Shown here in pieces: positions 3,138-52,189 of a stretch of DNA of 64,000 nucleotides. The DNA lies in the NCBI GenBank assembly GCA_013329045.1, contig DUKZ01000020.1:33489-97488 (forward strand), written 5' to 3'. The number at the start of each line of letters is the position of its first letter. The first letter of the stretch is position 1. The DNA is from Candidatus Woesearchaeota archaeon. Its GTDB lineage: Archaea > Nanobdellota > Nanobdellia > Woesearchaeales > UBA9989. Under the pieces are notes generated by a model that was given only the letters and a program-made list of their open reading frames with translations, searched no databases and was not told the DNA's origin. A program made the translations under genes and the position numbers.

Positions 3138-3257
3138 TTTATTTGCCAAAGGGATTTGAACAAAGTTCCCACAAGCAAAGCAAAGTGGGTACTAAGAACT
3201 GAAAGATTCACAAGAAAAGTTTTAGTATTGTCACCAAATGCATAAAGAAGGCTGCAG

Positions 3258-35219: not shown

Positions 35220-36138
35220 CGTAGGAGTTCCAGGGGATGTTCCAGCAGGTGCAAAGAAAACATACATCAAAAATTTCCTGAAGGTGACCCATAACACTAG
35301 GAGAGTTATGCTGTTTGCGGGCGACCAAAAGATTGAGCATCTCAATGATGATTTTTATGGCACTGTTAAGATGGAAGGAAAAGAAGTGTCGATCTCAAAA
35401 GATGATGCCGATCCAGAGCACCTTTTTAGGATTGCATCAAAGGCAAATATTGGTGTCTTTGCAGGCCAGCTAGGCCTCATCGCCCGGTATGGAAAGTCAT
35501 ACAAGAACATTCCTTACCTGATTAAGCTTAATTCAAAATCCCACTTGGTAAAGACAGAACTCCAGGATCCGTTGAGCAAGGCTTTGTGGGATATTGAGCG
35601 TATTGTAAAATTCAGGAAAGACTCAGGCTTGAATGTTGTTGGTGTTGGCTATACTGTTTATGTTGGCAGCATGTATGAGCCAAAAATGCTCAAGGAGGCA
35701 GCAAGGATCGCTTTTGATGCGCATCAAGCTGGCCTTTTGGCAATTTTCTGGATGTATCCGAGGGGAAAAGCAATTCTTGATGAGAAAGATCCTCATTTGA
35801 TTGCCGGGGCAGCCGGCACAGGTGCCTGTCTTGGTGCTGACTTTGTGAAGGTAAATTATCCAAAGCCAAAGGAAGGAAAAGCCGCAGAATCATTCAAGGA
35901 AGCAGTGCTCGCTGCCGGAAGGACTGGGGTGATTACTGCTGGCGGCTCTTCTAAGCCTCCAAGGGAGTTTTTACAGGAAACTTGGGATCAGATCCACATC
36001 GCTGGCTGTCGGGGAAATGCTACCGGAAGAAATATCCATCAGCGGTCTCTCAGTGAAGCAGTAAAGCTGGCTAATGCCATTGCCTCAATCACGTATGAGG
36101 ACAAGAGTGTTGATGAAGCGATGAAGATGATGGGGTGA
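35197..36138 (+). CDS. fbaB: Class I fructose-bisphosphate aldolase, DhnA/FbaB archaeal type
   Basis: The ATG at 35197 follows GAGGTGAT. YLIKLNSKSHL, VGYTVYVGS, LAIFWMYPRG, GADFVKVNYPK and GRNIHQ blocks. Confidence 0.75.
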   Translation: MKKMKESDVGVPGDVPAGAKKTYIKNFLKVTHNTRRVMLFAGDQKIEHLNDDFYGTVKMEGKEVSISKDDADPEHLFRIASKANIGVFAGQLGLIARYGKSYKNIPYLIKLNSKSHLVKTELQDPLSKALWDIERIVKFRKDSGLNVVGVGYTVYVGSMYEPKMLKEAARIAFDAHQAGLLAIFWMYPRGKAILDEKDPHLIAGAAGTGACLGADFVKVNYPKPKEGKAAESFKEAVLAAGRTGVITAGGSSKPPREFLQETWDQIHIAGCRGNATGRNIHQRSLSEAVKLANAIASITYEDKSVDEAMKMMG

Positions 36139-36169
36139 GATATGTTTTTTCTTTATTTATTATCTTCAG

Positions 36170-36720
36170 CAATGAATGGCCCAATCGGGGCAGAGCCCCG
36201 GGGTATCTCCTCAAAAACTTATGAGCTTTAACTGATTGGGGTCACCGCCTTGCTTCCTAATATATTCTTTCATCTGCTCTTCTCCATAGCCATCGCCAAC
36301 AGTATCAATGTGTCCTCCCTCTGTCCAGAAGTGACCTCCCCACAATTCCTCACGGAGCTTAGGAAACCTCTTGAACGTTTCTTTTGCAGTAATGCTTTTA
36401 CAAATCATCATCACTTGCGATGGAGAGTATCGAGGCGCTGCCTCGACAAGAATATGTAAATGATCCTCATCAGTCCCCATCGCATGAAACTGCAAATAAT
36501 ACCGCTTACCAATGCCAAGTAAGATTTCTTTCAAATATTTGCTCACCTCATCGGTGAGTAAATCCTTACGATACTTGACAACAAATACCACATGATATCG
36601 GATGCGATAACTACAATAAGAAGCATAACGCACTTCCATAAAAAGAAAAAAAGCGTCATGTATTCATAAAATGAGAGGCACTACGGGGCAGAGCCCCGGG
36701 GTATTTACCCAAATAGGAAT
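36170..36720. mobile_element. IS200/IS605-family element (tnpA only), with the same hairpin motif at both ends
   Basis: CGGGGCAGAGCCCCGGGGTAT at 36186-36206 and 36684-36704, in direct orientation. They flank a Y1-transposase gene. Confidence 0.65.
36211..36639 (-). CDS. tnpA: IS200-like HUH/Y1 transposase
   Basis: YHVVFVVKYRK...HLHILVEAAPRYSPSQV is the classical IS200 TnpA pattern. 142 aa. Confidence 0.85.
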   Translation of the reverse strand: MEVRYASYCSYRIRYHVVFVVKYRKDLLTDEVSKYLKEILLGIGKRYYLQFHAMGTDEDHLHILVEAAPRYSPSQVMMICKSITAKETFKRFPKLREELWGGHFWTEGGHIDTVGDGYGEEQMKEYIRKQGGDPNQLKLISF

Positions 36721-36758
36721 AAACAACCTTTTTAAACCCCACCGCTCTTCATCCTTGT

Positions 36759-37439
36759 ATGAAACTTTCCATCATCATCCCCGCCTACAACGAGGAGAAA
36801 TTCATCAAGAAAGTTGTGGGCATCGTAAAAAAAGTTGATTTGGGAAAAATCGAGAAGGAAATCATCATCGTCAATGACGCTTCAAAGGATAACACAGGTA
36901 ATATTATCCAAAAAATCAAAGGGGTAAAGATTCTGAACCACAAGGTAAATCAAGGCAAGGGCGCGGCCATCAGGACTGGCCTCCAGCATGCGACAGGCGA
37001 CATCGTCCTCATCCAGGACGCTGATCTCGAATACGACCCGAACGAATACCCAAAATTAATTCAGCCAATTATCCAGGGTCATGCTGATATTGTCTATGGC
37101 TCAAGGTTCACAGCATCGCACAATCCCAAATACAGATTGTATTATCTTGGTAATAAGTTTCTCACTCTTCTCACCAATATCCTCTACGGCGCAAGAATTA
37201 CTGACATGGAAACCTGTTATAAAGTGATGAAAAAGGATGTCATCAAGGGGATGAAGTTGAGGGCAAATAGGTTTGATTTCGAGCCGGAAATTACCGCAAA
37301 ACTCCTCAAACAAAAAAAGAAGATTATAGAAGTCCCAATCACCTATCACTGCCGTGATTTTGCTGAAGGAAAAAAGATCACGTGGAAAGACGGCATGCTC
37401 GCTGTTTGGTATTTGATAAAATATAGGTTTGTTGATTAG
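36759..37439 (+). CDS. GT2 glycosyltransferase (DPM1-like)
   Basis: LSIIIPAYNEE...IVNDASKDNT...DADLEYDP motifs. Confidence 0.8.
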   Translation: MKLSIIIPAYNEEKFIKKVVGIVKKVDLGKIEKEIIIVNDASKDNTGNIIQKIKGVKILNHKVNQGKGAAIRTGLQHATGDIVLIQDADLEYDPNEYPKLIQPIIQGHADIVYGSRFTASHNPKYRLYYLGNKFLTLLTNILYGARITDMETCYKVMKKDVIKGMKLRANRFDFEPEITAKLLKQKKKIIEVPITYHCRDFAEGKKITWKDGMLAVWYLIKYRFVD

Positions 37440-37442
37440 AAT

Positions 37443-37560
37443 CAGAAATCCGCTGCTCAACACTAACCCCGACCTGAAGGTAGGGGTATGACGTGCCTCG
37501 CTTCTACACGCGGATTTCTGGTGTAGAATTGGGCACTCGCCCTAAAGGGCGGGGTATGAC
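37443..37560. repeat. Cluster of hairpins: 11-bp inverted repeat CAGAAATCCGC/GCGGATTTCTG enclosing hairpin CCCCGACC..GGTAGGGG, plus hairpin CGCCC-TAAA-GGGCG. Each inner hairpin is followed by GGGGTATGAC
   Basis: Seen directly. The GGGGTAT tail is shared with the IS200 end motif. An alternative pairing is TTCTACAC/GTGTAGAA (37503-37528). It lies in the convergent gap between GT2 and the methyltransferase. Confidence 0.5.
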
Positions 37561-37590
37561 ACCCAATTCAACAATCAAAAAGTTATGTTT

Positions 37591-38250
37591 TCACTTCTTC
37601 GCCACAACCACAAAGTCCCCCCATAAGTTCCGTGCGGGAAAACTGACCTTTACAGAATGGAAATGCTCTCCGACAATGCTCCTTAGTTTTCCCTTCGTCC
37701 AGGGGCGGGTGATCTCGCCGGGGTATGCATCAAACTTTTTCCCGATGATTCGCACAAGCAAGCCAAATCCCCGCAGTATCGTGCCATTGAGGCTGAACAT
37801 TGGCGGCCAGAACGTATAGAAACCCCCGCCTTTCTTGAGCACGCGTGCGCACTCGCTCATGAGCTGGTGGATTTCTTCTTCAGTAAAATGCTCATACAAT
37901 CCATGGTTCCATATCCCGTCAAGTGATTCATCCTTAAAGGGCAGCCGGAAAGCATCCCCTTTCACGCGCACATCAAATTGCTTGATTGCATGGGACTGCT
38001 TGAGGGCATCAAAAGAAATGTCAAGGGCAATAAGAGTCCGGTTCTTTTTTCGAATAAGAGTAGATGCCTGTGCCGTGCCGCAGCCAACTTCACAATAGAT
38101 TCCATCAGGTTTGGGAAATGCTTTCTCAAACACCCGCCGGTGCGTTGGGGCAATCACATGTTTTCTGTAATATTGGACAGCGCTTTCATAGAATGTTCCT
38201 TTCATCCCAACATAATGGCTTTCCCAGTCCTGCTCCACTTCTTTTGGCAT
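37591..38250 (-). CDS. Class I SAM-dependent methyltransferase
   Basis: YCEVGCGTAQ motif I. ALDIS and LKKGG motifs. The ORF is open to 38376, but the upstream part overlaps the structured element. The ATG at 38250 (MPKEVEQ) is preferred, weakly. Confidence 0.65.
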   Translation of the reverse strand: MPKEVEQDWESHYVGMKGTFYESAVQYYRKHVIAPTHRRVFEKAFPKPDGIYCEVGCGTAQASTLIRKKNRTLIALDISFDALKQSHAIKQFDVRVKGDAFRLPFKDESLDGIWNHGLYEHFTEEEIHQLMSECARVLKKGGGFYTFWPPMFSLNGTILRGFGLLVRIIGKKFDAYPGEITRPWTKGKLRSIVGEHFHSVKVSFPARNLWGDFVVVAKK

Positions 38251-38547: not shown

Positions 38548-40878
38548 ATGTGTCTCAAAAGGATTAAGGGTGTATGGAAAGAGCATTGGATTCCAATTAG
38601 TATCTTAGCTTTGCTCATCATCATCTTTTGTTATCCTTATTTTAGCTCTGATACCATGCCTGTGCGTGCCGGTCCAGGGCTAGGGCTTCCAGCTGGCGAT
38701 GCCCATTACAACGCGGCAAATGCCATGATTGCCCAAAATGCTGCAAGGGAATTTGATCTTCCTCTCTGGAGCCCCTACACGATGTCGGGCACCCCCTTCT
38801 ACGCAAAGCCCCAAGTCCCTTTCTTCTATATCACATATCCGTTATATTTCCTGGCTCCAACCCCCTGGGCATTCCTGAAGTGGAGCCTCATTATCCATCT
38901 TCTGATTGCAGGCATTGCAATGTACTCATTATTCTGGTACATGAGAAAAGACAAGTACGCATCATTCATTGCAGCTCTTTGTTATATGTTCTCAGGCTAC
39001 ATAACGGCTGACTTATTCGGTGGCCATCCAAATATCGTATTCAATTATGCCTGGGTTCCCCTCATAGTCTTATTTTCCATAAAGGCAATGAAAGAGGATC
39101 ACATTAAAAATGCCATTTGGACAGGAATCTTTCTTTCATTGCAGGTGATGGGCGGCGGTCCGGAAATGTTCCTCTACACCCTGCTGTTTGTCGGGATTAT
39201 CTTCCTTTTTTACCTCATCACTTCAGACCCATCAAAGATGCTAAAAAAAGTTCTCATTGCAGGCATCATCATTATTCTTGTCTTCGCCGGCCTCACTGCC
39301 CATAAGTTTCTCCCATTAAAAGAGCTCATGAAAATATCTGTCAGGAACCAGGGTTACAGCATGGAGAACAGCTTGGGTGATCCAACAGAATTCCGTGAGT
39401 TCTGGCATGACCTCGTGAGGCCTGGACCGAGAAATATTGGTTTTATCCCTTTCCTGCTCCTCCTCTTTGCCCTTCCGTTGTGGAAGAAGAAAGACGTCTC
39501 CTTGTTCATGATCATGGCAATTTTTGCTCTCCTCATGCTTTCCGGGTCGTTTGTGTATTTCCTTGTCTGGAAATTTATCCCGTATTATAATAAGATGGAT
39601 GATATCTTTAAGGGAATTTTCCTCTTCATTCTCCCAGCTTGCTATCTTGCAGGTGTTGGAATACAGCAAATCCTCCATCATACAGACAAAAAACTTAAGA
39701 TAAAAAAAGGAGTCATCGTTGGCGTCCTTGCCTTCCTCATCATTCTTGACCTGCTCGTTTTTGTTCCCGATTGGATGGGTTCTGCCGACAGGAAAACCAT
39801 GCAGGAAAACGGCATCATCTACCCAGCAAGATTCGCCCAGAGGACAAGCCCCCCCTATGTCTCTATGCAAGAAACGCTGGAAAGAAATACAATTTTGCAA
39901 AGGATTAGTGAAGACAAGTCATTATATAGGATCCATGTCCAGGAAACAAACGGCATTGATTGGGGAACAGACACAAGCACGATCCCATTGGGGCTCCAGG
40001 ATGTGTATGGGACAGAGAATATTTGGCTCGTGGATTATATGCCAATGTTCCTCAGCGTTGCAAACAGTGATCCGGCTAAATTGTTTGGCATCCTCAACAC
40101 AAAGTATATCACAAGCACCACGCCATTGAATATCTCAGGGTATCGCTTTATTGGAAAAGCCTCTGAATGCGGCCCTCTCTGCCAGCCGATAAAAATTGGC
40201 GGGCCATACTTATACCAAAACGATCTCTGGCTTCCACGATATTACCATGCCCCTAATGCAGTTCTTGTTATCGGGTCAAGGGATAACAAGCTCCAGGCGA
40301 TGTATTTTCTCCTCACCAATCCAAACCTGAATCCTGCAAAGACAATCATCATCTACGGAAAAGATTCTATCAATGAGTACACTCCAGATGACCTGGGCAG
40401 GTTCTCTATGATCCTATTGACCCCGGGGTCAATTGATGAGAAAAGCGGGTTTATCCTGGAGCAATATGCAAAATCAGGGGGGATGCTCATGCCAGACATT
40501 CTCTCTGGAGAACAGCAGATATTTGTAGCAGGGATGGGAGAGGCCCTCCAAAATCTCAGTAGGGAGGGTGGTTTTGAGGAATTGTCTTATTCATTCTCTT
40601 CTGGTTTTGATACCCTCACCCTCGATGTCCATAAGAGTAATGGCTGGGTGTTCCTCTCAGAACAATACAGCATGTATCAAGGATGGGAAGCGAGGGTTGA
40701 TGGAAAGGAAACAGCCATCGAAAGAGCTGATGGTGTTCTTTCAGCAGTATATGTGCCAAAAGGAGCATCATCTCTTGTCATGACATACCATCCAAGATAC
40801 CTGACAGAAGGGATCATCATCTCTCTCATCTCAATAAGTATCATCAGTGGAGCATTATTCTATGGAAAAAAAGAATAG
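38548..40878 (+). CDS. Large polytopic membrane protein with a C-terminal extracytoplasmic domain; YfhO-like / GT-C-fold glycosyltransferase candidate
   Basis: 776 aa. About 12 TM helices in the N-terminal 450 aa, then a soluble domain and a terminal TM. The architecture resembles YfhO. Confidence 0.45.
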   Translation: MCLKRIKGVWKEHWIPISILALLIIIFCYPYFSSDTMPVRAGPGLGLPAGDAHYNAANAMIAQNAAREFDLPLWSPYTMSGTPFYAKPQVPFFYITYPLYFLAPTPWAFLKWSLIIHLLIAGIAMYSLFWYMRKDKYASFIAALCYMFSGYITADLFGGHPNIVFNYAWVPLIVLFSIKAMKEDHIKNAIWTGIFLSLQVMGGGPEMFLYTLLFVGIIFLFYLITSDPSKMLKKVLIAGIIIILVFAGLTAHKFLPLKELMKISVRNQGYSMENSLGDPTEFREFWHDLVRPGPRNIGFIPFLLLLFALPLWKKKDVSLFMIMAIFALLMLSGSFVYFLVWKFIPYYNKMDDIFKGIFLFILPACYLAGVGIQQILHHTDKKLKIKKGVIVGVLAFLIILDLLVFVPDWMGSADRKTMQENGIIYPARFAQRTSPPYVSMQETLERNTILQRISEDKSLYRIHVQETNGIDWGTDTSTIPLGLQDVYGTENIWLVDYMPMFLSVANSDPAKLFGILNTKYITSTTPLNISGYRFIGKASECGPLCQPIKIGGPYLYQNDLWLPRYYHAPNAVLVIGSRDNKLQAMYFLLTNPNLNPAKTIIIYGKDSINEYTPDDLGRFSMILLTPGSIDEKSGFILEQYAKSGGMLMPDILSGEQQIFVAGMGEALQNLSREGGFEELSYSFSSGFDTLTLDVHKSNGWVFLSEQYSMYQGWEARVDGKETAIERADGVLSAVYVPKGASSLVMTYHPRYLTEGIIISLISISIISGALFYGKKE

Positions 40879-42511
40879 CATGGACATTGCCGCAATAATT
40901 CTTATTGCAGCAATCGTGCTCTATCATCTCTCTCCTTTGTTTGATCATCAGCTAAAGCATGATTTTCCCTACGGGATGATGGCCTCGGACACATTCCAGC
41001 ATCAGACAAGGGCTGAATCAATTAAGCTCATGGACAATTACAAATGGGAAGCTCCCTGGATCGTCGCTGGCTTTACCGACAATCCTGGCTTTTACCAACC
41101 GATTATGTATCATCTTGGTGTGCTCCTCTCCCACTTAGCCGGCCTTGAGACATATGACACCGCCTATTACGTGATAATCTTTCTGTTGATGCTTGGGATG
41201 ATTGGTATGTATGTCTTGATAAGAAAGTTCCATCCGCTCGTTGCATTCCTTTCTATTCCTTTGATGTCACTTGTGTTCATGCAGCAGCCAACTATCGGCC
41301 TTACCTGGGGGCATTGGCCAAGCATTGCTGCCCAAGGCTTCTTGATAGGATTCTTATTCAGCATCATGTTCCATAAGGAGAAAGGGTGGTGGGTTATAGA
41401 GGGTATACTGCTGGTTGGCATTTTTCTGGCTCATAGTTCAGAAGCGATCTTTGCAGTGATTGTACTGGTAATAGCAGCAGTGATCCTTCTTGTAAAAGGG
41501 GAGTGGAACAAAGATGATATCGCAAGTCTAGCGAAGGCGGCTCTGCTTGCAGGGGTCATCTCGTTTTGGTATGGTATTATTTTCTGGAACACCTGGCGGT
41601 TAATGGAGCCCTTACGTTTTATTCCTCTTCCTGCTTGGAACAACCCAATATCGCTGTATCTGAAGGATTTTGGCATCATTTTGATAGTGCTTGTCATTGG
41701 CATGGCTCTTGCTGCCATAACTGCAAAGAAAAAGCTCCATGTCCCCCTCCTGTTCTCCTATATCTTCATCGTGCTGGGGTACACAAATTATATTGGATTT
41801 GGTAAGCGGTCATTCCAGTTCCGCATGCTCTGGCCAGTCTACCTCTCATTGTTCTTTGGGATCGCATTGTACTCGCTGATTCAGGCGCTTGACAAGAAGG
41901 CAAGGCCAATTGCAGCAATAGGCATATCACTTCTGTTTATCTTCCTCTTCATAGGGCCGGTTCATGCAAAGGCTCTGCCCCATACAGTCATCTTCAACGG
42001 CCCAGGCCTGATGGATCAGCAGCACTGGGACGCTTTCGAGTTCATCCAGGAAAATACCCCAAAGGATGCATCAATCTATTTCCTGTATGGGGACATGTAT
42101 AGCCAGAATGCGGTCCTAAGAAATGCAGAAAGGACGCATTATCAAATTGACAATGATGACTACATTGCATCAATCCAGAATGCCACCTTGAGAGGTGATT
42201 TTCTGGGTATTATCAGGGGGGATTCCCATGGTGTTTCTTACACATACAGAAAAGGCCTCTTAGAGTTTGGCCATTATAAGACAGAGCTTGGGGATGATTA
42301 TTTTTATAAGAATTATGATATCTGCACAATGGATTATGTTGTATTGGACACAGCAAGCCGCCAGCCAGTCATTGCCCAGTATAACACACTGATCGCAAAT
42401 GAGATGGTGCAGCATGGAACACATCAGATTGTCTTTAACAATGGCATAGTAGCGATCCTAAAGAACATCAAAAAGGGGGAAACGTGCATTGAACCAAAAA
42501 AGCTTGCTTGA
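40847..42511 (+). CDS. Polytopic membrane protein, GT-C-like (ArnT/PMT-like) candidate with a C-terminal soluble domain
   Basis: The start is probably at ATG 40862 or 40880, just after the upstream stop. The C-terminal domain shares the motif pattern IYFL.GD...DYVVLD...I..FNNGI with 53936..55492 and 58968..60512. Confidence 0.45.
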   Translation: MEHYSMEKKNSMDIAAIILIAAIVLYHLSPLFDHQLKHDFPYGMMASDTFQHQTRAESIKLMDNYKWEAPWIVAGFTDNPGFYQPIMYHLGVLLSHLAGLETYDTAYYVIIFLLMLGMIGMYVLIRKFHPLVAFLSIPLMSLVFMQQPTIGLTWGHWPSIAAQGFLIGFLFSIMFHKEKGWWVIEGILLVGIFLAHSSEAIFAVIVLVIAAVILLVKGEWNKDDIASLAKAALLAGVISFWYGIIFWNTWRLMEPLRFIPLPAWNNPISLYLKDFGIILIVLVIGMALAAITAKKKLHVPLLFSYIFIVLGYTNYIGFGKRSFQFRMLWPVYLSLFFGIALYSLIQALDKKARPIAAIGISLLFIFLFIGPVHAKALPHTVIFNGPGLMDQQHWDAFEFIQENTPKDASIYFLYGDMYSQNAVLRNAERTHYQIDNDDYIASIQNATLRGDFLGIIRGDSHGVSYTYRKGLLEFGHYKTELGDDYFYKNYDICTMDYVVLDTASRQPVIAQYNTLIANEMVQHGTHQIVFNNGIVAILKNIKKGETCIEPKKLA

Positions 42512-42869
42512 GGACATAAAGAATCTGGGAGGGCTAGTAACCATAGCAGTAGTCATTGTTCAAGTGTTCTTTAGCAAGACAAACATCTTGATAACCGCAA
42601 GGCTTGTTATTTCTCTCGTATGGATTTCCCTCATTCCAGGGTATGGTCTTTTGCTGACATGGCGAGAGAGGCTGACCTTCTTGGAGTATAGTGTTCTTGC
42701 AGCATTTGTTGGTGCCTCAGTAACAGGAATCCTCAGTTATCACCTGGGCCTCATTGGAGTTAATTTGTCATCACAACCAATCCTTCTTCCGTTAATCTTA
42801 TTAATGATTGGCATTGCCATCGAGTGGAAGGTGAAAAAACATGAAACCGCAAACCCATCTCACCGTTAG
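42489..42869 (+). CDS. Small hypothetical membrane protein
   Basis: 126 aa with 3-4 TM helices. Overlaps its neighbours. Confidence 0.4.
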   Translation: MNQKSLLEDIKNLGGLVTIAVVIVQVFFSKTNILITARLVISLVWISLIPGYGLLLTWRERLTFLEYSVLAAFVGASVTGILSYHLGLIGVNLSSQPILLPLILLMIGIAIEWKVKKHETANPSHR

Positions 42870-43263
42870 CACGCTCCTCGCAGCCCTTTTCTACCCATTG
42901 ATCGGCTGGAATGCCCTATGGGTATTCATGACAGGATTTCTGGTGGATCTGGACCATTTTATCTATTATTATGCAATAAAGAGAGATCTTAGCATTAAAG
43001 GTTTTTTTGAGTTTTTTGGGCCAGAAAACCAGGAGTTCCACCAGGGGTGCATGTGTATCTTCCACAGTTTTGAGATTCTCGTCATTTTTATCGTCGCAAG
43101 TTTCTTTTCGATGGTCATCTTTGCAGCAACAGCCTCCCTTGCCATCCATTACTTGATGGATTATATTTATGAAAAGGGTATTTCTGGAGAGGGGTATGTA
43201 AAATCCATGTCCCATATTGCGTATGCAAAAAGAAAGCGCATGAAGCAAAATCAAAAGAAATAG
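42841..43263 (+). CDS. Hypothetical membrane protein
   Basis: 140 aa with 3 TM helices and an LVDLDHF motif. Its last 7 codons are part of the 108-nt repeat. Confidence 0.45.
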   Translation: MKPQTHLTVSTLLAALFYPLIGWNALWVFMTGFLVDLDHFIYYYAIKRDLSIKGFFEFFGPENQEFHQGCMCIFHSFEILVIFIVASFFSMVIFAATASLAIHYLMDYIYEKGISGEGYVKSMSHIAYAKRKRMKQNQKK

Positions 43264-43346
43264 CTTTTCGCATCATTTTTTTCCAAGGAGGAAATAATTG
43301 GCGATGTGGTCTGGACCGCTATTCCCTTTGATAGAGATGATTTTTG
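43239..43346. repeat. Direct repeat copy 1 (about 108 nt, about 95 percent identical to 51849..51957)
   Basis: atgaagcaaaatcaaaagaaata ... tttttttccaaggaggaaataattggcgatgtggtctggaccgctattccctttgatagagatgatttttg. Confidence 0.85.
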
Positions 43347-43459
43347 ATGCAATGACTTTTCTCATCCTTCGCCACCGTATCATCTTGAACTTCGAGGCAG
43401 AGCGTCAGGGAATGAAGGAAGATGATGTGATTCAGAAGTTAATAGATAAGATAAAATAA
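43304..43459 (+). CDS. Small ORF (51 aa) with a strong AAGGAGG SD inside repeat copy 1
   Basis: MWSGPLFPLIEMIFDAMTFLILRHRIILNFEAERQGMKEDDVIQKLIDKIK. The first 14 codons are duplicated at 51915. Confidence 0.3.
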   Translation: MWSGPLFPLIEMIFDAMTFLILRHRIILNFEAERQGMKEDDVIQKLIDKIK

Positions 43460-43622
43460 GAAAGGACAAGACGAGAAAGAGAGCAATCTCTCTTCTAGTG
43501 CGGTATTCGAATGAATATATAGTATTAATAGGTTATATTACAAAGATTATTATGAGGAGAATAGACACGCTTATATAGTTTGAAGTTTCAAATAAAGTTT
43601 CAAGGGTTATTTATTAAAAGAG

Positions 43623-46600
43623 GTGGGAATAATAAGCAATCATCCACAGCTTAACTTGATAATTGGATTATTTTTGCTTATAGGCGTGGTTATAGTAGTT
43701 GCTTCTGATGAAATATCAGGGAAAGGGGGCCTTGAGGTAAATCATTCTGACAGGGTATCAGGACATTTAGAAGATATGATAACAGGTATTGATGATGAGA
43801 AAGTTGAGAGACTGATCATTAAGTTTAAAAGTTCCGATGATCACAACTTATCTGCGTTTGATACCATAAAAGAGATTCCAGGTAGGAATCTTGTCACAGT
43901 TAAAGGTAGTATCAAGCATATTTCGCAATTGTTGGATGACCCTAATGTTGAGTTTATTGAGATTGACCAGAATGCCTCTTTGCTGGGTGATTCGTTGGGT
44001 TATGGTGTTGTGTTAACAAAGGCTCCTTTTGTGTGGAACCAATCGATGGGCTTGGGTGTCAAGGTGGCAGTGTTGGATTCTGGCATTGGAGTACATGATG
44101 ATTTAAGCATTTCTGGGGGGTATTCTGCTGTGAGTGATGATTATTTTGATTCTTATGGCCATGGTACGATGGTTGCTGGTGTTGTTGGTTCTTTGTTTGA
44201 TGACGAGGGCATTGTTGGCGTTTCCCCTTCTGTTGAATTATATGCTGTGAAGATTACTAATTCTTCCAAGGGGTTTATCTCAGATGCTATCCAGGGCTTG
44301 GAATGGGCTATTGATAATCATATGGATGTTGTGGTCATGAGTTTTGGCTTTCCTGAATATTCTCAGTTATTTAAGGAGGCTGTCCAGGATGCGTATGCTG
44401 AAGGTATTGTGTTGGTCGCAGCTGCCGGGAATGATGATAATGCTGAGATTCTTTATCCTGCTAAGTATACTGATGTAATCAGTGTTGGAGCAGTTGATGA
44501 GTATTTCCAACGATGGCCACAAAGCAATCATGGTGTTGATTTGGAGTTGGTCGCTGCTGGCGTTGACGTTAACACTACGGTTTTGGGTGATGGATATGCA
44601 TTGGGCACTGGCACCTCGCTTGCTGCCCCTCATGTTGCAGGCATTGCTGCCTTGCTAAAATCATACAACAATTCATTGTCAAATGAGGAGATTCGGGCAA
44701 AGCTGCGCAGTGATACGCGTGATTTAGGCGAACCTGGCAGGGATGATTATTTTGGTTATGGACTAGCTCAGGTGAACTTGAGCTTTGGATCAATGATTAT
44801 CAATGATTCTTATTTTTATGAAGTGTTTAATGTCACCGGTTATGGTACCGAAGAACAGGGAGAAATCTTTTGGCTGAATGGCACGGGAACAATTGATGAT
44901 GTTGAGTTTGCACCGGGCGTGTTTAAAGTTGTAAAATATCTCGATCCGATTGAAGAAAAAATAATTGTGGTTGAAGAAGGAGGGGAATTTCAGTTACTGG
45001 TTTCTGCAAATCTCGAAGATGATTTTAATAAAGAGGGGTCTACATTTTTTGACAACATAGTCTGGTACAATGGAAGTATGAAGATGTACCTGAGTGGAGA
45101 CATTGAATATGTTGATGCAATTTGTGTCAATATATACAAGTTAGATAACCAGTATGACTATTGTATTTATAAGACTGGAAAGAAAACTAGCTGTGACACT
45201 TATTCATCAGGAAGCTCTAATTATGATAGAATTTCCTTCCATGATGTGTGCGCGAATTATCCTCAAAATTGCACAGAAGGTGATGTTTTACAATTCCTCA
45301 ATATGAGGACAAATAAAACCGGAAGAATCTCAGATGAAGTGACTGCTTTCCTGAATTGTGAGAGCTCACCTAATTATGATAATGAACCAATTGATTTCGA
45401 TGTTATCAATACAAAAAAGGCACGATGTACATCAAGCACAACATATGATACTGAAGGATACAAAAACGCCCCAAGTTGGCTGATTATTTCAAGCTATTCA
45501 TGCACCCAAGGTCGTCTATGTAGCTCTTCTTTAGATGAGATCAACATCACAGACCCGAATAGTCCTGTAGCAAACCCCTGTGGTTGCAACGGCACTATTG
45601 AAGTGAACACTGTTGATAATAATGAGGATCCCATAGGGGATCTATCTGTTTACTTAAATGGTATTTTCCAAGATAGCGTAGATGAGATTGGACAAGTACG
45701 TATAGATTTTGGTTCTGTCCAATGCAATTCAAATCAAGAAGTCACGGTGAAATGTGCAAACCAGTCAAAAACTTGTGGTACGAAGTCCACACAGATAGAC
45801 ATGAATAATGACTATGATTCATTGAATTTTGACTGTACACTATGCAAAGAAGATGCACCTGACATCTGGATAGACAATACACATATTTACCTGGACATGG
45901 AAAGTAATACGGTAAAAGTGGGGGTGTTTTCCACAAGCATATCAGGCAGTACATCGGTAAGATTGCAACGAGTTGATGATGATGGGATTTTGCAGCCAGA
46001 ATTGAATGAGGAGGTGACCTTAGTTCCTGGTGGAGTAATGAATGTAACATTTTCTTTGCTTTCCATAGAGAAAGGGGATTATCTCCATATCTCTCTTGAT
46101 CCTGATAATGATATCGAACAGGAGGACAACACGAATAATTATTTGTTCCGTCCTGCCTTAAAGCCAATCAACGTCTATATAACGATGGATATTGACAGTT
46201 CATTTTCCGCAGCGCAACCGGTTATAGAAGAGTTCATAGGATCATTCGTTAACATGGTAGATACTGAAGGAGAGGCTGATGTGATTGTTGAGATTCGCGA
46301 ATCCTTTTCATTGACTGATGGGGCTCACACCATCTTTTCTGATGGCAAGGTAGTTGTCAATCCGTATGGAGCTGAAGTTTTCAAAACAAGTTCAGGATCA
46401 AAACCATTAGTGACTGTAACTGGAAACCGGATCGAAGGCATTATTGCAGGAGTAAAACGCATGATTAATGCCAGGAACATATTCTTGAACAAGGACATGT
46501 ATTTTTCTGATTCAATCATTGATGATTATGACCGGCTGGGCATCAGTGTCTTCGATGTGATGCACAACGAAGAACACCAACCAGTATTCTCTGCAAACAA

Positions 46601-47723
46601 CACACAATTCGCAGAAGTCGTCAGGAAAGTGTTGTTTGACAACAATTTTGAGGTCAGCATCAAACCAGTGAAAACGTTAAACACCACATCCTACAACAAA
46701 TCAACAATATTACGAGTCAAGCACGTCAACTCAGATTTCTCACAAGATTACAAAGACGCAATAGGAATAAACGACACGCCAGTGGTGATGGCAGGCGGCC
46801 TTTTTTCAGACCTTTTTACTTTCAATTCATTCGGCAAGGAACTTGCCGCAAAAGGGTATGATGTGTGGCTTATTGAGCTCACTGGGGGCCCCTATACTGA
46901 CCTTGAGACTAATGATGGTTGTGGAAGCCAGTGTCCAAACTATACGTATGATGATCTTGTGGATTTTTACTGGCCTGCATTGGTCGCAGGAGTGATAGAG
47001 TATTCAGACAAACAAAAAATTAACTATCTTGGTCATAGCAATGGAGGGCGAGTAGCGTTATCTTCGCTAAACAGTTACTCCCAGTCTGGAAAGAACAATG
47101 CAGGATATTATTTCGATTATGGAACCGGTAATTATGTTTATTCAGATTTGCCGGCATATCCAGTAGATAAGTTTTTCGGGATTGGGGTTCCGGCATCTCT
47201 AAATGATGAGACCCCCTTTACAGAGGCGGTAAGATACGAAGTGAATTATTCGTATCCACCAGGTCAGAAGACTGGTAACATTGCGATATCGAGAATTGAT
47301 AGTAACGGGTTGTCCCATATCAGAAAATATGACTACGCAAAAACATTAGCCACCTATGCTCCCATCGATCTATATAACCTTTTTAACCTAGCTTTCTCTT
47401 TAAGAGATCGGGGGATGATTTCAAGAAATTTAATGTATGATTATAATCAATTAGCACTAAACGAATCAAATGAGATTGACCTATCGACATTTGATGTTAG
47501 TAAGATTATACTCATAAACACAAAGCCTGATGATGTTATTCTTGGAATTCAGGATCAGGAAAGAGTTTTCAACAAGACAATTTTAATTGCAGACACAAAT
47601 AAAATCTCTTTAAATTTTACTAGAAATGTTTATCTTGGTGTATTCGGAGCAATTAATTCACATCATGGAGCTATAGCATCTAATAGTCATACAATCGAGT
47701 TCGTGATAGAGGAGTTATCATGA
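43623..47723 (+). CDS. Subtilisin-like serine protease (peptidase S8) with a very large Cys/Asn-rich C-terminal extension (1366 aa)
   Basis: VAVLDSGIGVHDDL (Asp), HGTMVAGVVG (His) and GTSLAAPHVAGIAALL (Ser) catalytic motifs. An N-terminal signal anchor. The start codon is uncertain (GTG at 43623). Confidence 0.8.
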   Translation: MGIISNHPQLNLIIGLFLLIGVVIVVASDEISGKGGLEVNHSDRVSGHLEDMITGIDDEKVERLIIKFKSSDDHNLSAFDTIKEIPGRNLVTVKGSIKHISQLLDDPNVEFIEIDQNASLLGDSLGYGVVLTKAPFVWNQSMGLGVKVAVLDSGIGVHDDLSISGGYSAVSDDYFDSYGHGTMVAGVVGSLFDDEGIVGVSPSVELYAVKITNSSKGFISDAIQGLEWAIDNHMDVVVMSFGFPEYSQLFKEAVQDAYAEGIVLVAAAGNDDNAEILYPAKYTDVISVGAVDEYFQRWPQSNHGVDLELVAAGVDVNTTVLGDGYALGTGTSLAAPHVAGIAALLKSYNNSLSNEEIRAKLRSDTRDLGEPGRDDYFGYGLAQVNLSFGSMIINDSYFYEVFNVTGYGTEEQGEIFWLNGTGTIDDVEFAPGVFKVVKYLDPIEEKIIVVEEGGEFQLLVSANLEDDFNKEGSTFFDNIVWYNGSMKMYLSGDIEYVDAICVNIYKLDNQYDYCIYKTGKKTSCDTYSSGSSNYDRISFHDVCANYPQNCTEGDVLQFLNMRTNKTGRISDEVTAFLNCESSPNYDNEPIDFDVINTKKARCTSSTTYDTEGYKNAPSWLIISSYSCTQGRLCSSSLDEINITDPNSPVANPCGCNGTIEVNTVDNNEDPIGDLSVYLNGIFQDSVDEIGQVRIDFGSVQCNSNQEVTVKCANQSKTCGTKSTQIDMNNDYDSLNFDCTLCKEDAPDIWIDNTHIYLDMESNTVKVGVFSTSISGSTSVRLQRVDDDGILQPELNEEVTLVPGGVMNVTFSLLSIEKGDYLHISLDPDNDIEQEDNTNNYLFRPALKPINVYITMDIDSSFSAAQPVIEEFIGSFVNMVDTEGEADVIVEIRESFSLTDGAHTIFSDGKVVVNPYGAEVFKTSSGSKPLVTVTGNRIEGIIAGVKRMINARNIFLNKDMYFSDSIIDDYDRLGISVFDVMHNEEHQPVFSANNTQFAEVVRKVLFDNNFEVSIKPVKTLNTTSYNKSTILRVKHVNSDFSQDYKDAIGINDTPVVMAGGLFSDLFTFNSFGKELAAKGYDVWLIELTGGPYTDLETNDGCGSQCPNYTYDDLVDFYWPALVAGVIEYSDKQKINYLGHSNGGRVALSSLNSYSQSGKNNAGYYFDYGTGNYVYSDLPAYPVDKFFGIGVPASLNDETPFTEAVRYEVNYSYPPGQKTGNIAISRIDSNGLSHIRKYDYAKTLATYAPIDLYNLFNLAFSLRDRGMISRNLMYDYNQLALNESNEIDLSTFDVSKIILINTKPDDVILGIQDQERVFNKTILIADTNKISLNFTRNVYLGVFGAINSHHGAIASNSHTIEFVIEELS

Positions 47724-48274
47724 AACAAGAGACTATTGGTAGCTCAGATATCATATTTTATATTGCTTTCGTTATTTATGGTCAATTTTTAGCATCATAC
47801 CAAACAATAACGACACCATTGTCTAATGATCAGGTGGTATTAAATTTAATAATGAGTCTACTTGTTAGCGTTTTAATACTTTATTTTACCCGACTAAATC
47901 CCATTAGAAAATATTTTAAAGGTATCAGATCACGACAAGTATTGTTTATCTCAATCATCTTGATTATAACATGTATTTTTCTGTTTTCATCGGTCTTCTC
48001 TTCAAAGAGAGTGTTAGATAACACTGTCGTTCAGATTCAAGAAAAAATTTATAGAGAACAGAGTTTCACGAATAAGATAACAGTTAGTCTTATGATAAGC
48101 TCCTTCTTATATTCAATTATATTTGCTTTTCAGCTATCAAAGAAATTTGATGAAAGAATCGACATTAATCTAACATATATCTATTGGTTTACCTTATTTT
48201 TTGTTCAATTTTTAATGATGCACACAATCGCATTGATAATAAGTGGACTTAGAAACATGGGGTTTGGATTATGA
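47720..48274 (+). CDS. Hypothetical polytopic membrane protein (AT-rich)
   Basis: 184 aa with 5-6 hydrophobic helices. ATGA overlap with the subtilase gene. Confidence 0.4.
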   Translation: MKQETIGSSDIIFYIAFVIYGQFLASYQTITTPLSNDQVVLNLIMSLLVSVLILYFTRLNPIRKYFKGIRSRQVLFISIILIITCIFLFSSVFSSKRVLDNTVVQIQEKIYREQSFTNKITVSLMISSFLYSIIFAFQLSKKFDERIDINLTYIYWFTLFFVQFLMMHTIALIISGLRNMGFGL

Positions 48275-48318
48275 TAGACGGCCATATAATAGAATGTTGG
48301 GATGTTTGGGAGATTGAA

Positions 48319-48439
48319 ATGAATGAAGGGTCTTATACTGACCTTGAGACTAATGATGGTTGTGGTTCTTCTTGCTGTGATTATACTTATCAAAGCCAGG
48401 TCGATTATTATTGGTCAATTTTAGCGAGGGGTACTAAAT
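48319..48439 (+). CDS. Small ORF (40 aa) that is a diverged duplicate of a subtilase C-terminal segment
   Basis: tatactgaccttgagactaatgatggttgtgg is identical at 46893-46924 and 48338-48369. MNEGSYTDLETNDGCGSSCCDYTYQSQVDYYW parallels YTDLETNDGCGSQCPNYTYDDLVDFYW. ATGA overlap with the next gene. Confidence 0.3.
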
Positions 48440-51400
48440 GAAAACCAAGAATCTACTGATTGTCTGTATCCTCCTCATCCCTTTTGTCTCTGCTTCGCTT
48501 GATCCGCTTATTGCTTCGTATAATTTTGATTTTTCTTCTGGTGTTTTGGATGTGACAAGCACCTCTCAATTCTTAACTGACTCGGACAATAATGGCGTCA
48601 ATGATACATTGACCTTTAATATCACGACTGCTGCCGGACCATCACAGGAGTATACTTTTCTTATTTCCCTGTTTGAGGGAACTGATCTTGTGCAGAATTA
48701 TTCTGTTATGAATGTTTCAACAATTTACCCTTCTGCACAGGTCTCTTTCCCAACCATACAACTTGTACGGGCCAAGTATAATTATTCTCTCATGGTTTAT
48801 GATGGGAACTCTCTTGTGTATATGGATTATGCTTCAGAAACAATACCTTTTGGAGATGTTGAACGGGGCAACAGTATAGACTTCCTGTCTGATGCTCCCC
48901 TAGGTGATACCGGCATACAGCTCAATGTGACATTTAATGTATCAGTCAATCAGACAGAGAATATTACAGCATTCTTGTCTTTGGGAAATTATTCTACAGA
49001 AGTGATATCTTCCGGTAATTTGCTAACACCCCAGTCTACCATCTCATTGACCATTGATAATTTAACCATAACAGCATCCCACTATAGCGGTGTTATCATA
49101 ATTGATGCAATTAAAGTCGGTGAGAAAGTGTATTTTACAAATTATTCCACGGTGGCCTATAATTATGAGGACTTTGCCCAATACTCTTACATCCAGTCGG
49201 TTACCACCTCTCAGGTTGACATAAATGACAACAATCTATCTGAAGTAGTACAACTCAATCTTACAGTACAAGCAGACTCAGGAGGTATATACACCCTCAG
49301 CTCATCATTATTCGATCCTGAAAAAGAACTGCTCATCTACGCTGAAATCAACGTTACGCTGACCACTGGCCAAAACCAGGTCTTCCTCAATTTTAGCGGT
49401 GAAAAAGTGTATTCATCATACCAATACGGTGATTTCACAATCCCCCTCATTGAACTCTCAAAAAATGGACAATCAATAGATTCATACCCATTTGGTATAA
49501 CACTAACAGACCTGATATATACGGAGTTTGAACCCCCGGACCTGCCGGATTTGCAGGTAAATCTTTCAACACACCTCGATCTTAGCTCAAATATCACTTT
49601 TATCAATATTACCGTAAGTAATAATGGCTCTGCCCCTGCATTTAATATTTTCCTAGATGTTTTTGATGATAGTAATTTTAGTTATACCTTAGTACAAGAC
49701 TCTCTGAATAGTTCCGAACAGAAACTGTTTAATTTAACTAAGCCCTTCTATTACACCAACAATAACATTATGGTGATTGTTGACATGGAAAATATCGTTG
49801 ATGAATCATACGAAGAGAATAATATCATCGATAATTTTGTGGGAAATCACCAACCTATAGCTTTACCTAGCCAACATCCTTCATATTTCTCTTGCACCGT
49901 TTACACCCCATGTGTATTTTATTGTGATTACAGCGATGAAGACAATGATACCAGGGATACTACAATAATAAAATGGTTTATTAATGATGAATTAGCGCTT
50001 ACTAATTATTCAGTAAATGGAATTTATGAGTTATATCTAGATCCTTTTTATTATAAGAAAGGAGATACCTTAAAATTCGAATGCCAACATTGGGATCAAC
50101 ATTTACTTGCTAGCCAAAAAGAAAATTTCAGCGTATATATCAATAATTCTCTCCCTTTTATCACCACAAACATATCTATTATGCAATTGTACGTCGATCA
50201 AAATTTCACGTTTGATTTTAATGCAAGCGATCCAGATGTGGAGGATGGAATTGACATATTGGTATGGAGCCAAAATTTGTCATTTATGTCACTCAACAGC
50301 TCTACAGGCCTCCTCTCAGGTATACCAAATGAGAGCAATATTGGCAATTACTCCATCCAAGTTAGTGTTTCTGATGGTGATGACATAGATTACAAGAATA
50401 TCAGCGTATGGGTAAGCTATCCCCCAAACATCACAATGAACATCAAGTCCTTACAGGATGATTTCTCCATTGGTGATGTAGTTGGTATCACAGATCCGCC
50501 ATCCATTAGCTCTAAAACAAACGAGGTTGCAACGTGTGTGGGTCATAAATGCTCACTCAGCATATTTAATGCTGGTTTACAAATGAAAGATACAAAGAAT
50601 AAATTAGTTGATTACGCTCAGGGAACTCGTGTGTATCCCGATGCAGATGATATTGTGATTGAATGGTCAGGCAACACTGTCGTACTGCAACCTTTTATAA
50701 TAAAATCCAAGAAGAAATTGCCTGTTTCTGACACTGGGTTCAGCACAAATATTACCTATGAACGTGGGACATATAAAACCGTGCATTATATTGAGGATTA
50801 CAAAGATATAAAGGTGTTTGGGTATGATATTATCTCGTCAGTTGACTGTACAAATAATGATCTTGAGTTACTCTGTGGTAACCAGGTAATTGGTTTTGAT
50901 ATTCTTGAAGAGTCTGGTTTTTCCCTTGATGTTTCACCTACGCGTGTCCTGATTTACGGAAGGAATTTTTCTATAATTGACCCGACAATGCAATTGAATT
51001 ATACAAGTGACATCCATGATGCGATGGTCAAGTATAACAACCCTGACACCAATTATGATGCTGCTAATCTTGAGTCTTCAGATAGGGTCGATAATCAAAG
51101 AGAGAGTATTTTGCGATGGAACTTATCTTCAATACCGCCTGGGTCGACGATCACCAATGCTTCGTTATATATGATGGTTAGACTTTCTTCCTCTTCTGAT
51201 ACAACATATGGGGTACGAGGAGTGGGTAATGATTCATGGATAGAAAGTTCTATCACGTGGAATACTAAGCCGAGCTATGAAACTACACCATATGATACTG
51301 TTGATACTACCCCTTTTGATAATGGGGATTGGATGAGATGGAATATAACATCTCTTGCTCAGGAAAGTGCGGACTCTGATAAGTCACTGTCTCTTGCGAT

Positions 51401-51824
51401 AATAGATGAGGTGAGTGGTGGTACTGCAGCCTGGGGGTGGTATGATTCTGAAACTACAACTGCCTCAAGAAGGCCATACCTTACTATTGATTATGAAGTA
51501 ACACCTGAGGAGAATCAATCCCGTATCAAGAATGAAGGCAATAGCCCTCTTTCAATATACCTTCTTATGAAAATGCAGTTTTTTAATGAGTCAGCGCAGC
51601 AGTGGGTGGATGTAATGACTACGTACTCTTCAAATAGTACAATATCATTAGAACCAGGAGAGATTATAAAATTAGATGAAAACTGGACACTTTGGAATAC
51701 ATCTACCATAAACTATGGATCGGGGACGTATCGTGCTTTTGTAGACGCTCATGATTCCTATGACAGTATTATTTATAACAACGAGGGCAATCCATATGAC
51801 TCATATAACTTCTCATTGTCCTAA
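48438..51824 (+). CDS. Very large secreted Asn/Ser/Thr-rich protein, dense in N-x-S/T sequons, with He_PIG-type Ig-like and a DNRLRE-like region
   Basis: Signal peptide MKTKNLLIVCILLIPFVSAS. Dozens of NxS/NxT sites. SSTGLLSGIPNESNIGNYSIQVSVSDG (He_PIG). VDNQRESILRWNLSSIPPGSTITNASLYM resembles the DNRLRE-domain motif. Confidence 0.7.
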   Translation: MKTKNLLIVCILLIPFVSASLDPLIASYNFDFSSGVLDVTSTSQFLTDSDNNGVNDTLTFNITTAAGPSQEYTFLISLFEGTDLVQNYSVMNVSTIYPSAQVSFPTIQLVRAKYNYSLMVYDGNSLVYMDYASETIPFGDVERGNSIDFLSDAPLGDTGIQLNVTFNVSVNQTENITAFLSLGNYSTEVISSGNLLTPQSTISLTIDNLTITASHYSGVIIIDAIKVGEKVYFTNYSTVAYNYEDFAQYSYIQSVTTSQVDINDNNLSEVVQLNLTVQADSGGIYTLSSSLFDPEKELLIYAEINVTLTTGQNQVFLNFSGEKVYSSYQYGDFTIPLIELSKNGQSIDSYPFGITLTDLIYTEFEPPDLPDLQVNLSTHLDLSSNITFINITVSNNGSAPAFNIFLDVFDDSNFSYTLVQDSLNSSEQKLFNLTKPFYYTNNNIMVIVDMENIVDESYEENNIIDNFVGNHQPIALPSQHPSYFSCTVYTPCVFYCDYSDEDNDTRDTTIIKWFINDELALTNYSVNGIYELYLDPFYYKKGDTLKFECQHWDQHLLASQKENFSVYINNSLPFITTNISIMQLYVDQNFTFDFNASDPDVEDGIDILVWSQNLSFMSLNSSTGLLSGIPNESNIGNYSIQVSVSDGDDIDYKNISVWVSYPPNITMNIKSLQDDFSIGDVVGITDPPSISSKTNEVATCVGHKCSLSIFNAGLQMKDTKNKLVDYAQGTRVYPDADDIVIEWSGNTVVLQPFIIKSKKKLPVSDTGFSTNITYERGTYKTVHYIEDYKDIKVFGYDIISSVDCTNNDLELLCGNQVIGFDILEESGFSLDVSPTRVLIYGRNFSIIDPTMQLNYTSDIHDAMVKYNNPDTNYDAANLESSDRVDNQRESILRWNLSSIPPGSTITNASLYMMVRLSSSSDTTYGVRGVGNDSWIESSITWNTKPSYETTPYDTVDTTPFDNGDWMRWNITSLAQESADSDKSLSLAIIDEVSGGTAAWGWYDSETTTASRRPYLTIDYEVTPEENQSRIKNEGNSPLSIYLLMKMQFFNESAQQWVDVMTTYSSNSTISLEPGEIIKLDENWTLWNTSTINYGSGTYRAFVDAHDSYDSIIYNNEGNPYDSYNFSLS

Positions 51825-51848
51825 AATAGTGAAGAGTTAAGGGAAGCC

Positions 51849-51957
51849 GATGAAGCAAAATCAAAAGAAATAATTTTTGGCGTCACTTTTTTTCCAAGGA
51901 GGAAATAATTGGCGATGTGGTCTGGACCGCTATTCCCTTTGATAGAGATGATTTTTG
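51849..51957. repeat. Direct repeat copy 2
   Basis: It contains the remnant ATG AAG CAA AAT CAA AAG AAA TAA and the same SD plus ATGTGGTCTGGACCGCTATTCCCTTTGATAGAGATGATTTTTG. Confidence 0.85.
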
Positions 51958-52189
51958 GTGAGAGGATGGTAAAGTGTGGCAAAAAAAGAGCTTGCAGTTC
52001 CTCTTGTGTCGCATAATAGAAGGTTGTTCCTGTAGGGCTTTGCCTAATTTGGTGTTTGCCTCCCCCATACTCACTGCTATCGATATGAAAGGAAACAGAG
52101 AGGTACTTTCCCTTAGGTAAAAGGAGTTTTGAGTCCCGTTTGATGTGCTCATCCCACCTCTCCCAGGGGTATACAAAATAGAGTGTCCC

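Follow-up and report, generated by a model that had tools for sequence, protein, structure and literature searches.

Two hairpins beside an IS200-group insertion sequence of a woesearchaeote are very probably the two ends of one 133-bp non-autonomous element

The window analysed here is a stretch of 64,000 nucleotides from a Candidatus Woesearchaeota archaeon (contig DUKZ01000020.1 of assembly GCA_013329045.1; position 1 is its first nucleotide), in which a tnpA transposase gene, a family 2 glycosyltransferase (GT2) gene and a short spacer carrying two GC-rich hairpins lie side by side. The tnpA unit is an ordinary, complete IS200-type insertion sequence (IS; 36171..36717, minus strand, 547 bp, tnpA only). 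The two hairpins, which had been taken for solo, possibly REP-like units (REP, repetitive extragenic palindromic), are very probably the left and right ends of a single non-autonomous IS200-derived element of 133 bp (37440..37572, minus strand) that is separate from the IS and lies 0.7 kb from it, and the GT2 gene between the two is a bystander; instead of standing alone, the hairpins bound one element that recurs elsewhere. We call this element MITE-1 (MITE, miniature inverted-repeat transposable element), and it is of the kind known as palindrome-associated transposable elements (PATEs). The locus would then hold two separate single-strand ("peel-and-paste") elements of the IS200/IS605 family, both on the minus strand; it is ordinary mobile DNA and leaves the current understanding of this family unchanged.

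The original prediction, made from the letters of the window, had described an identical direct repeat on both sides of tnpA and two more GC hairpins beyond the GT2 gene that share the tail GGGGTATGAC, and both descriptions were borne out. The window contains exactly two copies of the 21-mer CGGGGCAGAGCCCCGGGGTAT (36186-36206 and 36684-36704, both plus strand), which bracket the open reading frame (ORF) at 36211-36639 (minus strand); no such pair is expected there by chance, and the similarity of the two copies reaches 30 nt at 90%. The first extra hairpin, CCCCGACC-TGAA-GGTAGGGG in the plus strand reading (37467-37486), has seven of eight pairs with one G.A mismatch, and its stem includes the GGGG of the heptamer GGGGTAT; the second, CGCCC-TAAA-GGGCG in the same reading, lies at 37538-37551. 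Both run into GGGGTATGAC, with a common stretch of 23 nt at 83%, and the second resembles the left end of the IS well past GGGGTAT, a likeness that takes in TTGGGT..ATACCCCG on one flank and AGTGCC on the opposite flank. Each is enclosed by an outer stem, whose arms are 37443-37453 and 37510-37520 for the first (11 bp, perfect; I12) and 37522-37533 and 37562-37573 for the second (11 of 12 paired; I14), and the whole 160-nt spacer between the GT2 and methyltransferase genes folds far better than its shuffles on both strands (z = -4.8).

The window contains 16 copies of GGGGTAT itself where 4.6 are expected (none of 100 shuffles had as many), and five of these copies fall within 36200-37726, every one on the plus strand. 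The fifth of them (37707-37726, plus strand, motif at 37720) is inside the methyltransferase ORF and is preceded by only a 4-bp stem (GGCG..CGCC); it is probably there by chance, since a hairpin scan and the left-end model described below both pass over 37707-37726. In the remainder of the 64 kb no other GGGGTAT follows a convincing hairpin, so that the window has only four hairpins of this kind, those of the IS and of the 133-bp element. A chance origin of the repeats and hairpins was rejected on four counts: the GGGGTAT shuffles, the 21-mer expectation, the match of the left-end model, and the copies that recur at other loci (the last two below).

The tnpA gene (36211..36639, minus strand) encodes a 142-aa Y1 HUH transposase that matches PF01797 (Y1_Tnp) with E = 2.5e-33 and passes the NCBI IS200 model NF033573 with 123.9 bits (cut-off 55), and when it is aligned with nine relatives the residues H60-L-H62 (the HUH motif), Y126 and Q130 show no variation. 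GGGGTAT becomes ATACCCC when read on the tnpA sense strand; this box stands just 5' of each subterminal hairpin, and about 60 related archaeal copies conserve it. The boundaries of the IS were set by comparing it with relatives in other contexts (L027, L028, L029 and L030; L numbers denote loci at which related sequences were found) and by an alignment of 32 left ends. Read on the tnpA sense strand, and with a caret at the element boundary here and below, the left end is TTTATT^CCTTTCTGGGTTTA-ATACC-CCGGGGCTCTGCCCCG and the right end is ATACC-CCGGGGCTCTGCCCCG-ATTGGGAGCTTTATT^. The left-end module, TGGGTAA-ATACC-CCGGGGCTCTGCCCCG (TGGGT box, guide box and hairpin; 36684..36711, minus strand), fits the consensus of the 32 copies, and directly 5' of the left end lies the target hexamer TTTATT (36718..36723, minus strand), a place where T-T/A-T-T is nearly invariant in the 32 copies and upstream of which the contexts of the relatives diverge. 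A left-end covariance model, R1, built from the 32 foreign left ends and containing no window sequence, scores 53.7 bits at the left end of the IS (36731-36678). The right end has the subterminal hairpin CGGGGC-TCT-GCCCCG with a 5' ATACC(CC) box (36186..36206, minus strand; a partial R1 match, 27.4 bits), and the last six bases of the IS are TTCATT (36171..36176, minus strand), which contain the predicted right cleavage site, C-ATT. That the tnpA unit is IS200-like, as first proposed, is thus confirmed by the IS200 model score and the conserved ends. Its predicted circle junction is TTCATT^CCTATTTGGG, and the predicted junction of a locus without the IS is GGTTGTTTATT^GCTGAAGATAAT.

Relatives of this TnpA with 65-88% identity lie in unrelated contexts of other Woesearchaeota, including two identical copies in one metagenome-assembled genome (MAG; L027 and L028), and a scan of one genome per species, a set that does not include the genome of the window, returned 67 further archaeal loci with the same plan in DPANN, Thermoplasmatota and Methanosarcinales MAGs. 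Wherever the contexts of the relatives differ, TTTATT always precedes the element, TT[C/T/G]ATT ends it, and the flanks carry no duplication. The consensus of the 32 foreign left ends is TTTATTCCnnnnTGGGTTTAATACCCCGSAGCTCTGCTSCGG, with the ATACC box conserved; the base and the top of the hairpin stem are invariant, and its two middle pairs covary (CG, GC, AU and UA), with 23 cells changed on both sides, a value reached by 0 of 500 shuffles. Family right ends finish TTGGGnnnTT[C/T/G]ATT. The ends of this widespread archaeal IS200 clade can thus be written as an explicit consensus: TTTATT^CCn4TGGGTTTA-ATACC-hairpin ... N-ATACC-hairpin-TTGGGn3TT-N'-ATT^.

In IS608, each hairpin has on the 5' side of its foot a short guide sequence that recognises a cleavage site by base pairing (PMC3201880), and by analogy the N-ATACC(CC) box region of the present family would act as a guide that pairs with a cleavage site N-ATT, the sites of the window IS being TTTATT outside its left end and TTCATT at its right end. 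The base 5' of ATACC and the N of the terminal T-N-ATT form a Watson-Crick pair in 39 of 47 distinct right ends (A-T 8, C-G 7, G-C 24), compared with about 19 expected under independence, and several of the non-pairing right ends are mis-assignments by the regular expression that was used. In the right end of the window IS, ATACC is preceded by G, which pairs with the C of CATT. Left ends nearly all have A together with TTTATT, and the rare variants are C after TTGATT (L051) and T after TTAATT (L038). The base before ATACC is therefore predicted to set the first base of the cleaved N-ATT, in the manner of the IS608 mechanism, and such a guide rule predicts the target of each element.

The GT2 and methyltransferase genes converge on a short spacer that MITE-1 mostly fills; without it the spacer would be about 18 nt long. 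The element is 133 bp long and contains no gene, and neither terminus is an inverted copy of the other. In the minus-strand reading, the spacer begins TTGATT^GTTGAATTGGGTGTC-ATACC-CCGCCCTTTAGGGCG-AGTGCCCAATTC and closes with GGCACGTC-ATACC-CCTACCTTCAGGTCGGGG-TTAGTGTTGAGCAGCGGATTTCTGATT^. The left-end module (37522..37572, minus strand) contains the 37538 hairpin as GTTGAATTGGGTGTC-ATACC-CCGCCC-TTTA-GGGCG within its outer stem, and directly 5' of it is the target hexamer TTGATT (37573..37578, minus strand), which is the same in all copies except L190, where it is ATGATT. The right-end module (37440..37520, minus strand) has a GTC-ATACC box and, as its hairpin at 37467-37486, CCCCTACC-TTCA-GGTCGGGG; this hairpin has its own outer stem, and the unit aligns with the long form of the family right ends (hairpin-AGTGAGCGGAGCGAACGGTGGG...TT[C/G]ATT) and finishes with the terminal CTGATT (37440-37445), which adjoins the GT2 stop codon TAG (37437-37439). 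Model R1 matches the 37538 unit over its full length at 37586-37532 (minus strand; 17.7 bits, E ~0.004), as well as the counterpart unit in strain variant L014 (15.7 bits). The suggestion that the extra hairpins follow the hairpin-plus-box grammar of Y1 transposases thus held, with the R1 match on the correct strand. In MITE-1 each ATACC box is preceded by C and each cleavage site reads GATT, which agrees with the guide/cleavage rule. The predicted circle junction of MITE-1 is CTGATT^GTTGAATTGGG, and the predicted minus-strand junction of a spacer without it is AACTTTTTGATT^CTAATCAACAAACC.

More than 119 loci came from a metagenome scan for the left-end core. Among them, copies of MITE-1 that are 98-100% identical lie in at least five flank combinations other than that of the window: both flanks are different at L176 and at L178 and L214, the flank on the GT2 side is different at L113 and L207, and the flank on the other side is different in the L014 type; the copy at L190 has diverged. 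All copies share the same boundaries, starting after (T/A)TGATT and closing with CTGATT, and none has a duplicated flank. A sister element of about 133 bp, MITE-2, which was searched for with a query slightly wider than the element (L014, 5331-5475), has the same two-module plan with different outer stems; it is present in five contexts, always after TT[T/C]ATT, and folds with z = -6.2 and -6.5. The outer stems as a group have many differing arm sequences, and pairing is kept between subfamilies.

At L178 (8250-8800 of contig Ga0209417_1004412), three transposase-less elements stand in a row 3' of a tRNA gene that has an intron. First comes a derivative of the window IS about 106 bp long, with nearly identical ends (one substitution in each) and with the tnpA core deleted at a short CTCAT repeat; MITE-2 is inserted exactly after the TTCATT of this derivative, and 29 nt further on comes a MITE-1 copy. 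The IS lineage has therefore been at another locus, deletion of its core yields miniature forms, and further insertions target right ends.

Several other loci have related but different arrangements. L005, L009, L014 and L224 diverge from the window at 37578/37579, exactly at the MITE-1 target hexamer, and in their alternative flank an HTH_38-like gene, a gene of 250 aa, a Band_7 gene and MITE-2 replace the methyltransferase and YfhO side; in L113 and L207 this L014-type flank is joined to yet another sequence on the GT2 side. In L004 (1-280) and L019 (3680-3958; contig ERZ4903137 k141_2936270), a strain variant, the left-end half of MITE-1 is gone, with a breakpoint in the hairpin loop (window 37546). 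It is replaced by 26 nt and then by a copy, 94% identical, of the final 144 nt of the GT2 gene (window 37308-37451); this copy contains an in-frame stop and the beginning of another right-end arm, at which the contig ends. Many metagenome contigs from other samples (L098-L216, e.g., L103 900-1070 and L148 1230-1300) carry elements some 125 nt long whose plan is TTTATT^CG..GGGTTTAATACC-CCGCCC-TTTA-GGGCG..GGTATTAAACCC...AACAAC-ATACC-hairpin-GGTTGTTGATT^, and among them are single-hairpin forms of about 45 nt in which the 5' part of a left end is fused to the 3' part of a right end. Finally, L067 has two copies of another intergenic repeat (3120-3250 and 6800-6930) that end ATACC-CCGCAGCTTGCTGCG-ACTGGGATTCTTTATT and have the same hairpin a second time 34 nt upstream, with no large ORF (e.g., tnpB) upstream on that strand. 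The elements of the window mark points where strain variants of the window woesearchaeote differ in gene content, and they matter where metagenome assemblies break or join.

A number of observations weigh against our reading of the two hairpins as the ends of one mobile element. The 17.7-bit R1 score of the 37538 unit is modest and its E-value is rough, and R1 also has a match of similar score inside a YfhO-like ORF (40582-40642, plus strand); this second match (TTATTCATTCTCTTCTGGTTTTGATACCC..., 14.7 bits, E ~0.03) is full length but weak, lacks a proper hairpin and is probably due to chance. The covariation counts, including those behind the guide/cleavage rule (39 of 47 right ends), carry no correction for shared ancestry. 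Some of the flank combinations (the L014 type versus the L113 type) may have arisen by recombination, or by joins made in assembly across a 139-bp repeat, and not by transposition; the arrangement of the L014 type recurs in several assemblies and on a scaffold with a diverged GT2 patch (L224). The original prediction had suggested comparing strains for presence or absence of the locus, and no copy of it without either element appeared among the contigs examined: exact-protein look-ups with TnpA and GT2, and the relatives of GT2, gave no empty site for the IS or for MITE-1. The nearest GT2 orthologues, with at most 70% identity in other Woesearchaeota, are in other contexts with no synteny. The left-end likeness of MITE-1 to the two autonomous copies L160 and L137 (below) is partly forced by the search pattern that retrieved them, and a search for TnpA proteins of their clade found that the closest Woesearchaeota member, P0209, has an AAACC box, not ATACC.

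It is quite unlikely that the nested-hairpin miniature elements, whose outer stems vary in sequence while still pairing, are maintained by selection for a host role (e.g., forming or insulating transcript 3' ends where genes converge in a gene-dense DPANN genome), with the single, fixed TnpA as a RAYT-like maintenance enzyme (RAYT, REP-associated tyrosine transposase); if true, this would be an archaeal counterpart of the REP/RAYT partnership that arose independently from a standard IS200.

An origin outside mobile DNA altogether, with the double nested hairpin at 37440-37575 being a small RNA or a bidirectional 3'-end or terminator structure of the host whose likeness to IS ends is incidental, is very unlikely. 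In its favour are the very stable folds of MITE-1 and its sister on both strands, the position of both known pairs between convergent genes, and outer stems that change in sequence yet keep their pairing between subfamilies. However, the unit recurs intact where the flanks are unrelated, its ends there are sharp and obey a target rule, and its two modules match autonomous IS200 copies at their left and right ends; no Rfam family matches it even at E up to 10. Termination in archaea is normally independent of hairpins, which also speaks against a host terminator. Over the whole window the Rfam gathering thresholds returned only a tRNA, and a search of 36100-37650 with E up to 10 returned nothing relevant. 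A K-turn or an H/ACA or C/D small RNA (sRNA) reading of GGGGUAUGAC, considered by eye, was rejected on three grounds: the sister element does not conserve its GA (it has UAUUGC and UAUUGA), the stems are followed by no consistent ACA box, and the GGGGUAUGAC feature is missing from the IS ends. An integron attC-like site was rejected on inspection: the outer arm of the 37538 unit (ATTCAAC and GTAGAAT) superficially fits RYYYAAC and GTTRRRY, but the arms are in the wrong order. An inserted element of this type may nonetheless have a secondary effect on the host.

REP/RAYT-like behaviour, which the original prediction had raised, would have a domesticated, fixed Y1 TnpA and hairpin-GGGGTAT units that are REP-like substrates spread as solo palindromes. 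In this species tnpA is indeed single-copy and always at the same locus (contigs with an identical TnpA or GT2 have the IS at the same site in all 24 + 24 contigs read), hairpins with the same box lie nearby, small elements cluster near IS ends both here and in L178, and REPs are known to resemble IS200/IS605 hairpins (PMC3333891). Against this, the window TnpA scores 19.4 bits with the REP-associated transposase model NF047646 (cut-off 80) while it passes the IS200 model; the hairpins that flank tnpA are direct, not inverted, and belong to canonical, distinct left and right ends; the relatives are ordinary mobile ISs in many contexts and a deletion derivative of the window IS is at another locus; no further copies are in the 64-kb window; and the two extra hairpins make one bounded element in which the left and right modules differ. 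We consider this explanation highly improbable.

The GT2 gene (36759..37439, plus strand; PF00535, E = 1.1e-35) lies between the right end of MITE-1 and the left end of the IS and so is outside both elements. It is a conserved Woesearchaeota gene with thousands of homologues, and it is ordinary chromosomal DNA between two elements. It had been thought possible that the gene is mobilisable cargo; this view was abandoned, given its position, its absence from the elements elsewhere and the lack of a second copy of the block. A composite transposon in which the MITE-1 left end and the IS right end mobilise the block 36171-37572 including GT2 is scarcely credible: the four ends are on the same strand (LE'-RE'-GT2-LE-tnpA-RE, where LE and RE are left and right ends) and the outermost pair formally brackets the gene, but the whole block was seen at one locus only and never elsewhere, the IS relatives and MITE-1 always occur without this widely conserved gene, and the outer two ends belong to different hairpin classes.

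If MITE-1 is a mobile element without a transposase gene, a TnpA of the family would move it in trans, and the candidate drivers are the adjacent TnpA and a second IS200 clade. The MITE-1 hairpins, with their TTTA and TTCA loops and other top pairs, misfit the invariant hairpin top of the resident IS clade. Two autonomous IS200 copies, L160 and L137, have the left end GGGT(CTC/TTA)ATACC-CCGCCC-TTTA-GGGCG, and the right end of L160, a complete copy, is ATACC-CCGGCC-TTCA-GGCCGGGG-AGGAGGTCATT, whose hairpin (ATACC-CCnnCC-TTCA-GGnnGGGG) is of the same kind as that of the MITE-1 right end. This right-end hairpin, the tnpA downstream and an adjacent look-alike of MITE-1 were not imposed by the search pattern. 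The L160 TnpA is 27% identical to the window TnpA, and P0209, a second-clade TnpA of Woesearchaeota that is 62% identical to it, is present in the same samples as the window organism. Because the MITE-1 hairpins fit the second clade (L160 type) better than the adjacent IS, the adjacent TnpA is a possible driver and not the likeliest one. The L160 copy (100-860 of Ga0209211_10207040, about 60% G+C) is from a clearly different, GC-rich organism; it follows directly after the ...TTTCTGATT end of the MITE-1 look-alike, which lies immediately 5' of the IS and has the related outer arms AGAAATCCCGCC and GGCGGGATTTCT.

The window IS shares with the IS200 group a small Y1 HUH transposase, the absence of terminal inverted repeats, subterminal hairpins at both ends on one strand, and insertion 3' of a short specific sequence without target duplication; as with the guide sequences of IS608 (PMC3201880), covariation links the cleavage site to a box that stands 5' of each hairpin. 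It differs from IS200 and IS608 in being very compact (547 bp), in having an identical 21-nt box plus hairpin at both ends, and in its N-ATACC box and predicted N-ATT cleavage sites. Its clade has a host range of mainly DPANN, Thermoplasmatota and Methanosarcinales MAGs, and IS200/IS605 has been reported to be the most widespread IS family in archaea (PMC13343696).

PATEs are defined by the lack of inverted terminal repeats, by near-terminal palindromes related to IS605-type ends and by the lack of target duplication; they are too short to encode a transposase, and some arise by deletion of the core of a full IS (PMC3119063). In Geobacillus stearothermophilus, PATE-like mini-elements share their ends with IS200/IS605 copies (PMC10055086). 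MITE-1 shares all features of the definition, and a short targeting oligonucleotide on its 5' side, with the PATEs of Haloquadratum walsbyi and Geobacillus, and core deletion is seen for the window IS as well (L178). MITE-1 differs from those PATEs in deriving from a tnpA-only IS200 lineage and not from tnpB-carrying elements, in its DPANN host, and in having each end within an extra outer stem of 11-12 bp whose sequence differs between subfamilies. The REPtron, in which REPs or bacterial interspersed mosaic elements (BIMEs) accompany a RAYT, likewise has a relative of Y1 transposases beside GC-rich hairpins with a conserved short flanking motif; the present locus differs from it in a TnpA below the RAYT cut-off, direct hairpins, a minimal copy number in 64 kb and bounded elements. 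For annotation, "non-autonomous IS200-derived element" is the best description of the 150-nt structured spacer after the GT2 gene, in preference to regulatory RNA, terminator or REP.

The identical TnpA and GT2 proteins are named in their sources as those of Candidatus Woesearchaeota (DPANN), and the same DNA is present in MAG GCA_013330465.1 and in many groundwater assemblies. The single Rfam tRNA of the window (3020-3137, plus strand, 118 nt, 47.5 bits) presumably contains an intron; ARAGORN in its bacterial mode reports no tRNA in the window. The region 42000-52000 has a G+C content of 0.37-0.40, compared with 0.44-0.48 elsewhere in the window, and may be a foreign or variable segment beside glycosylation genes.

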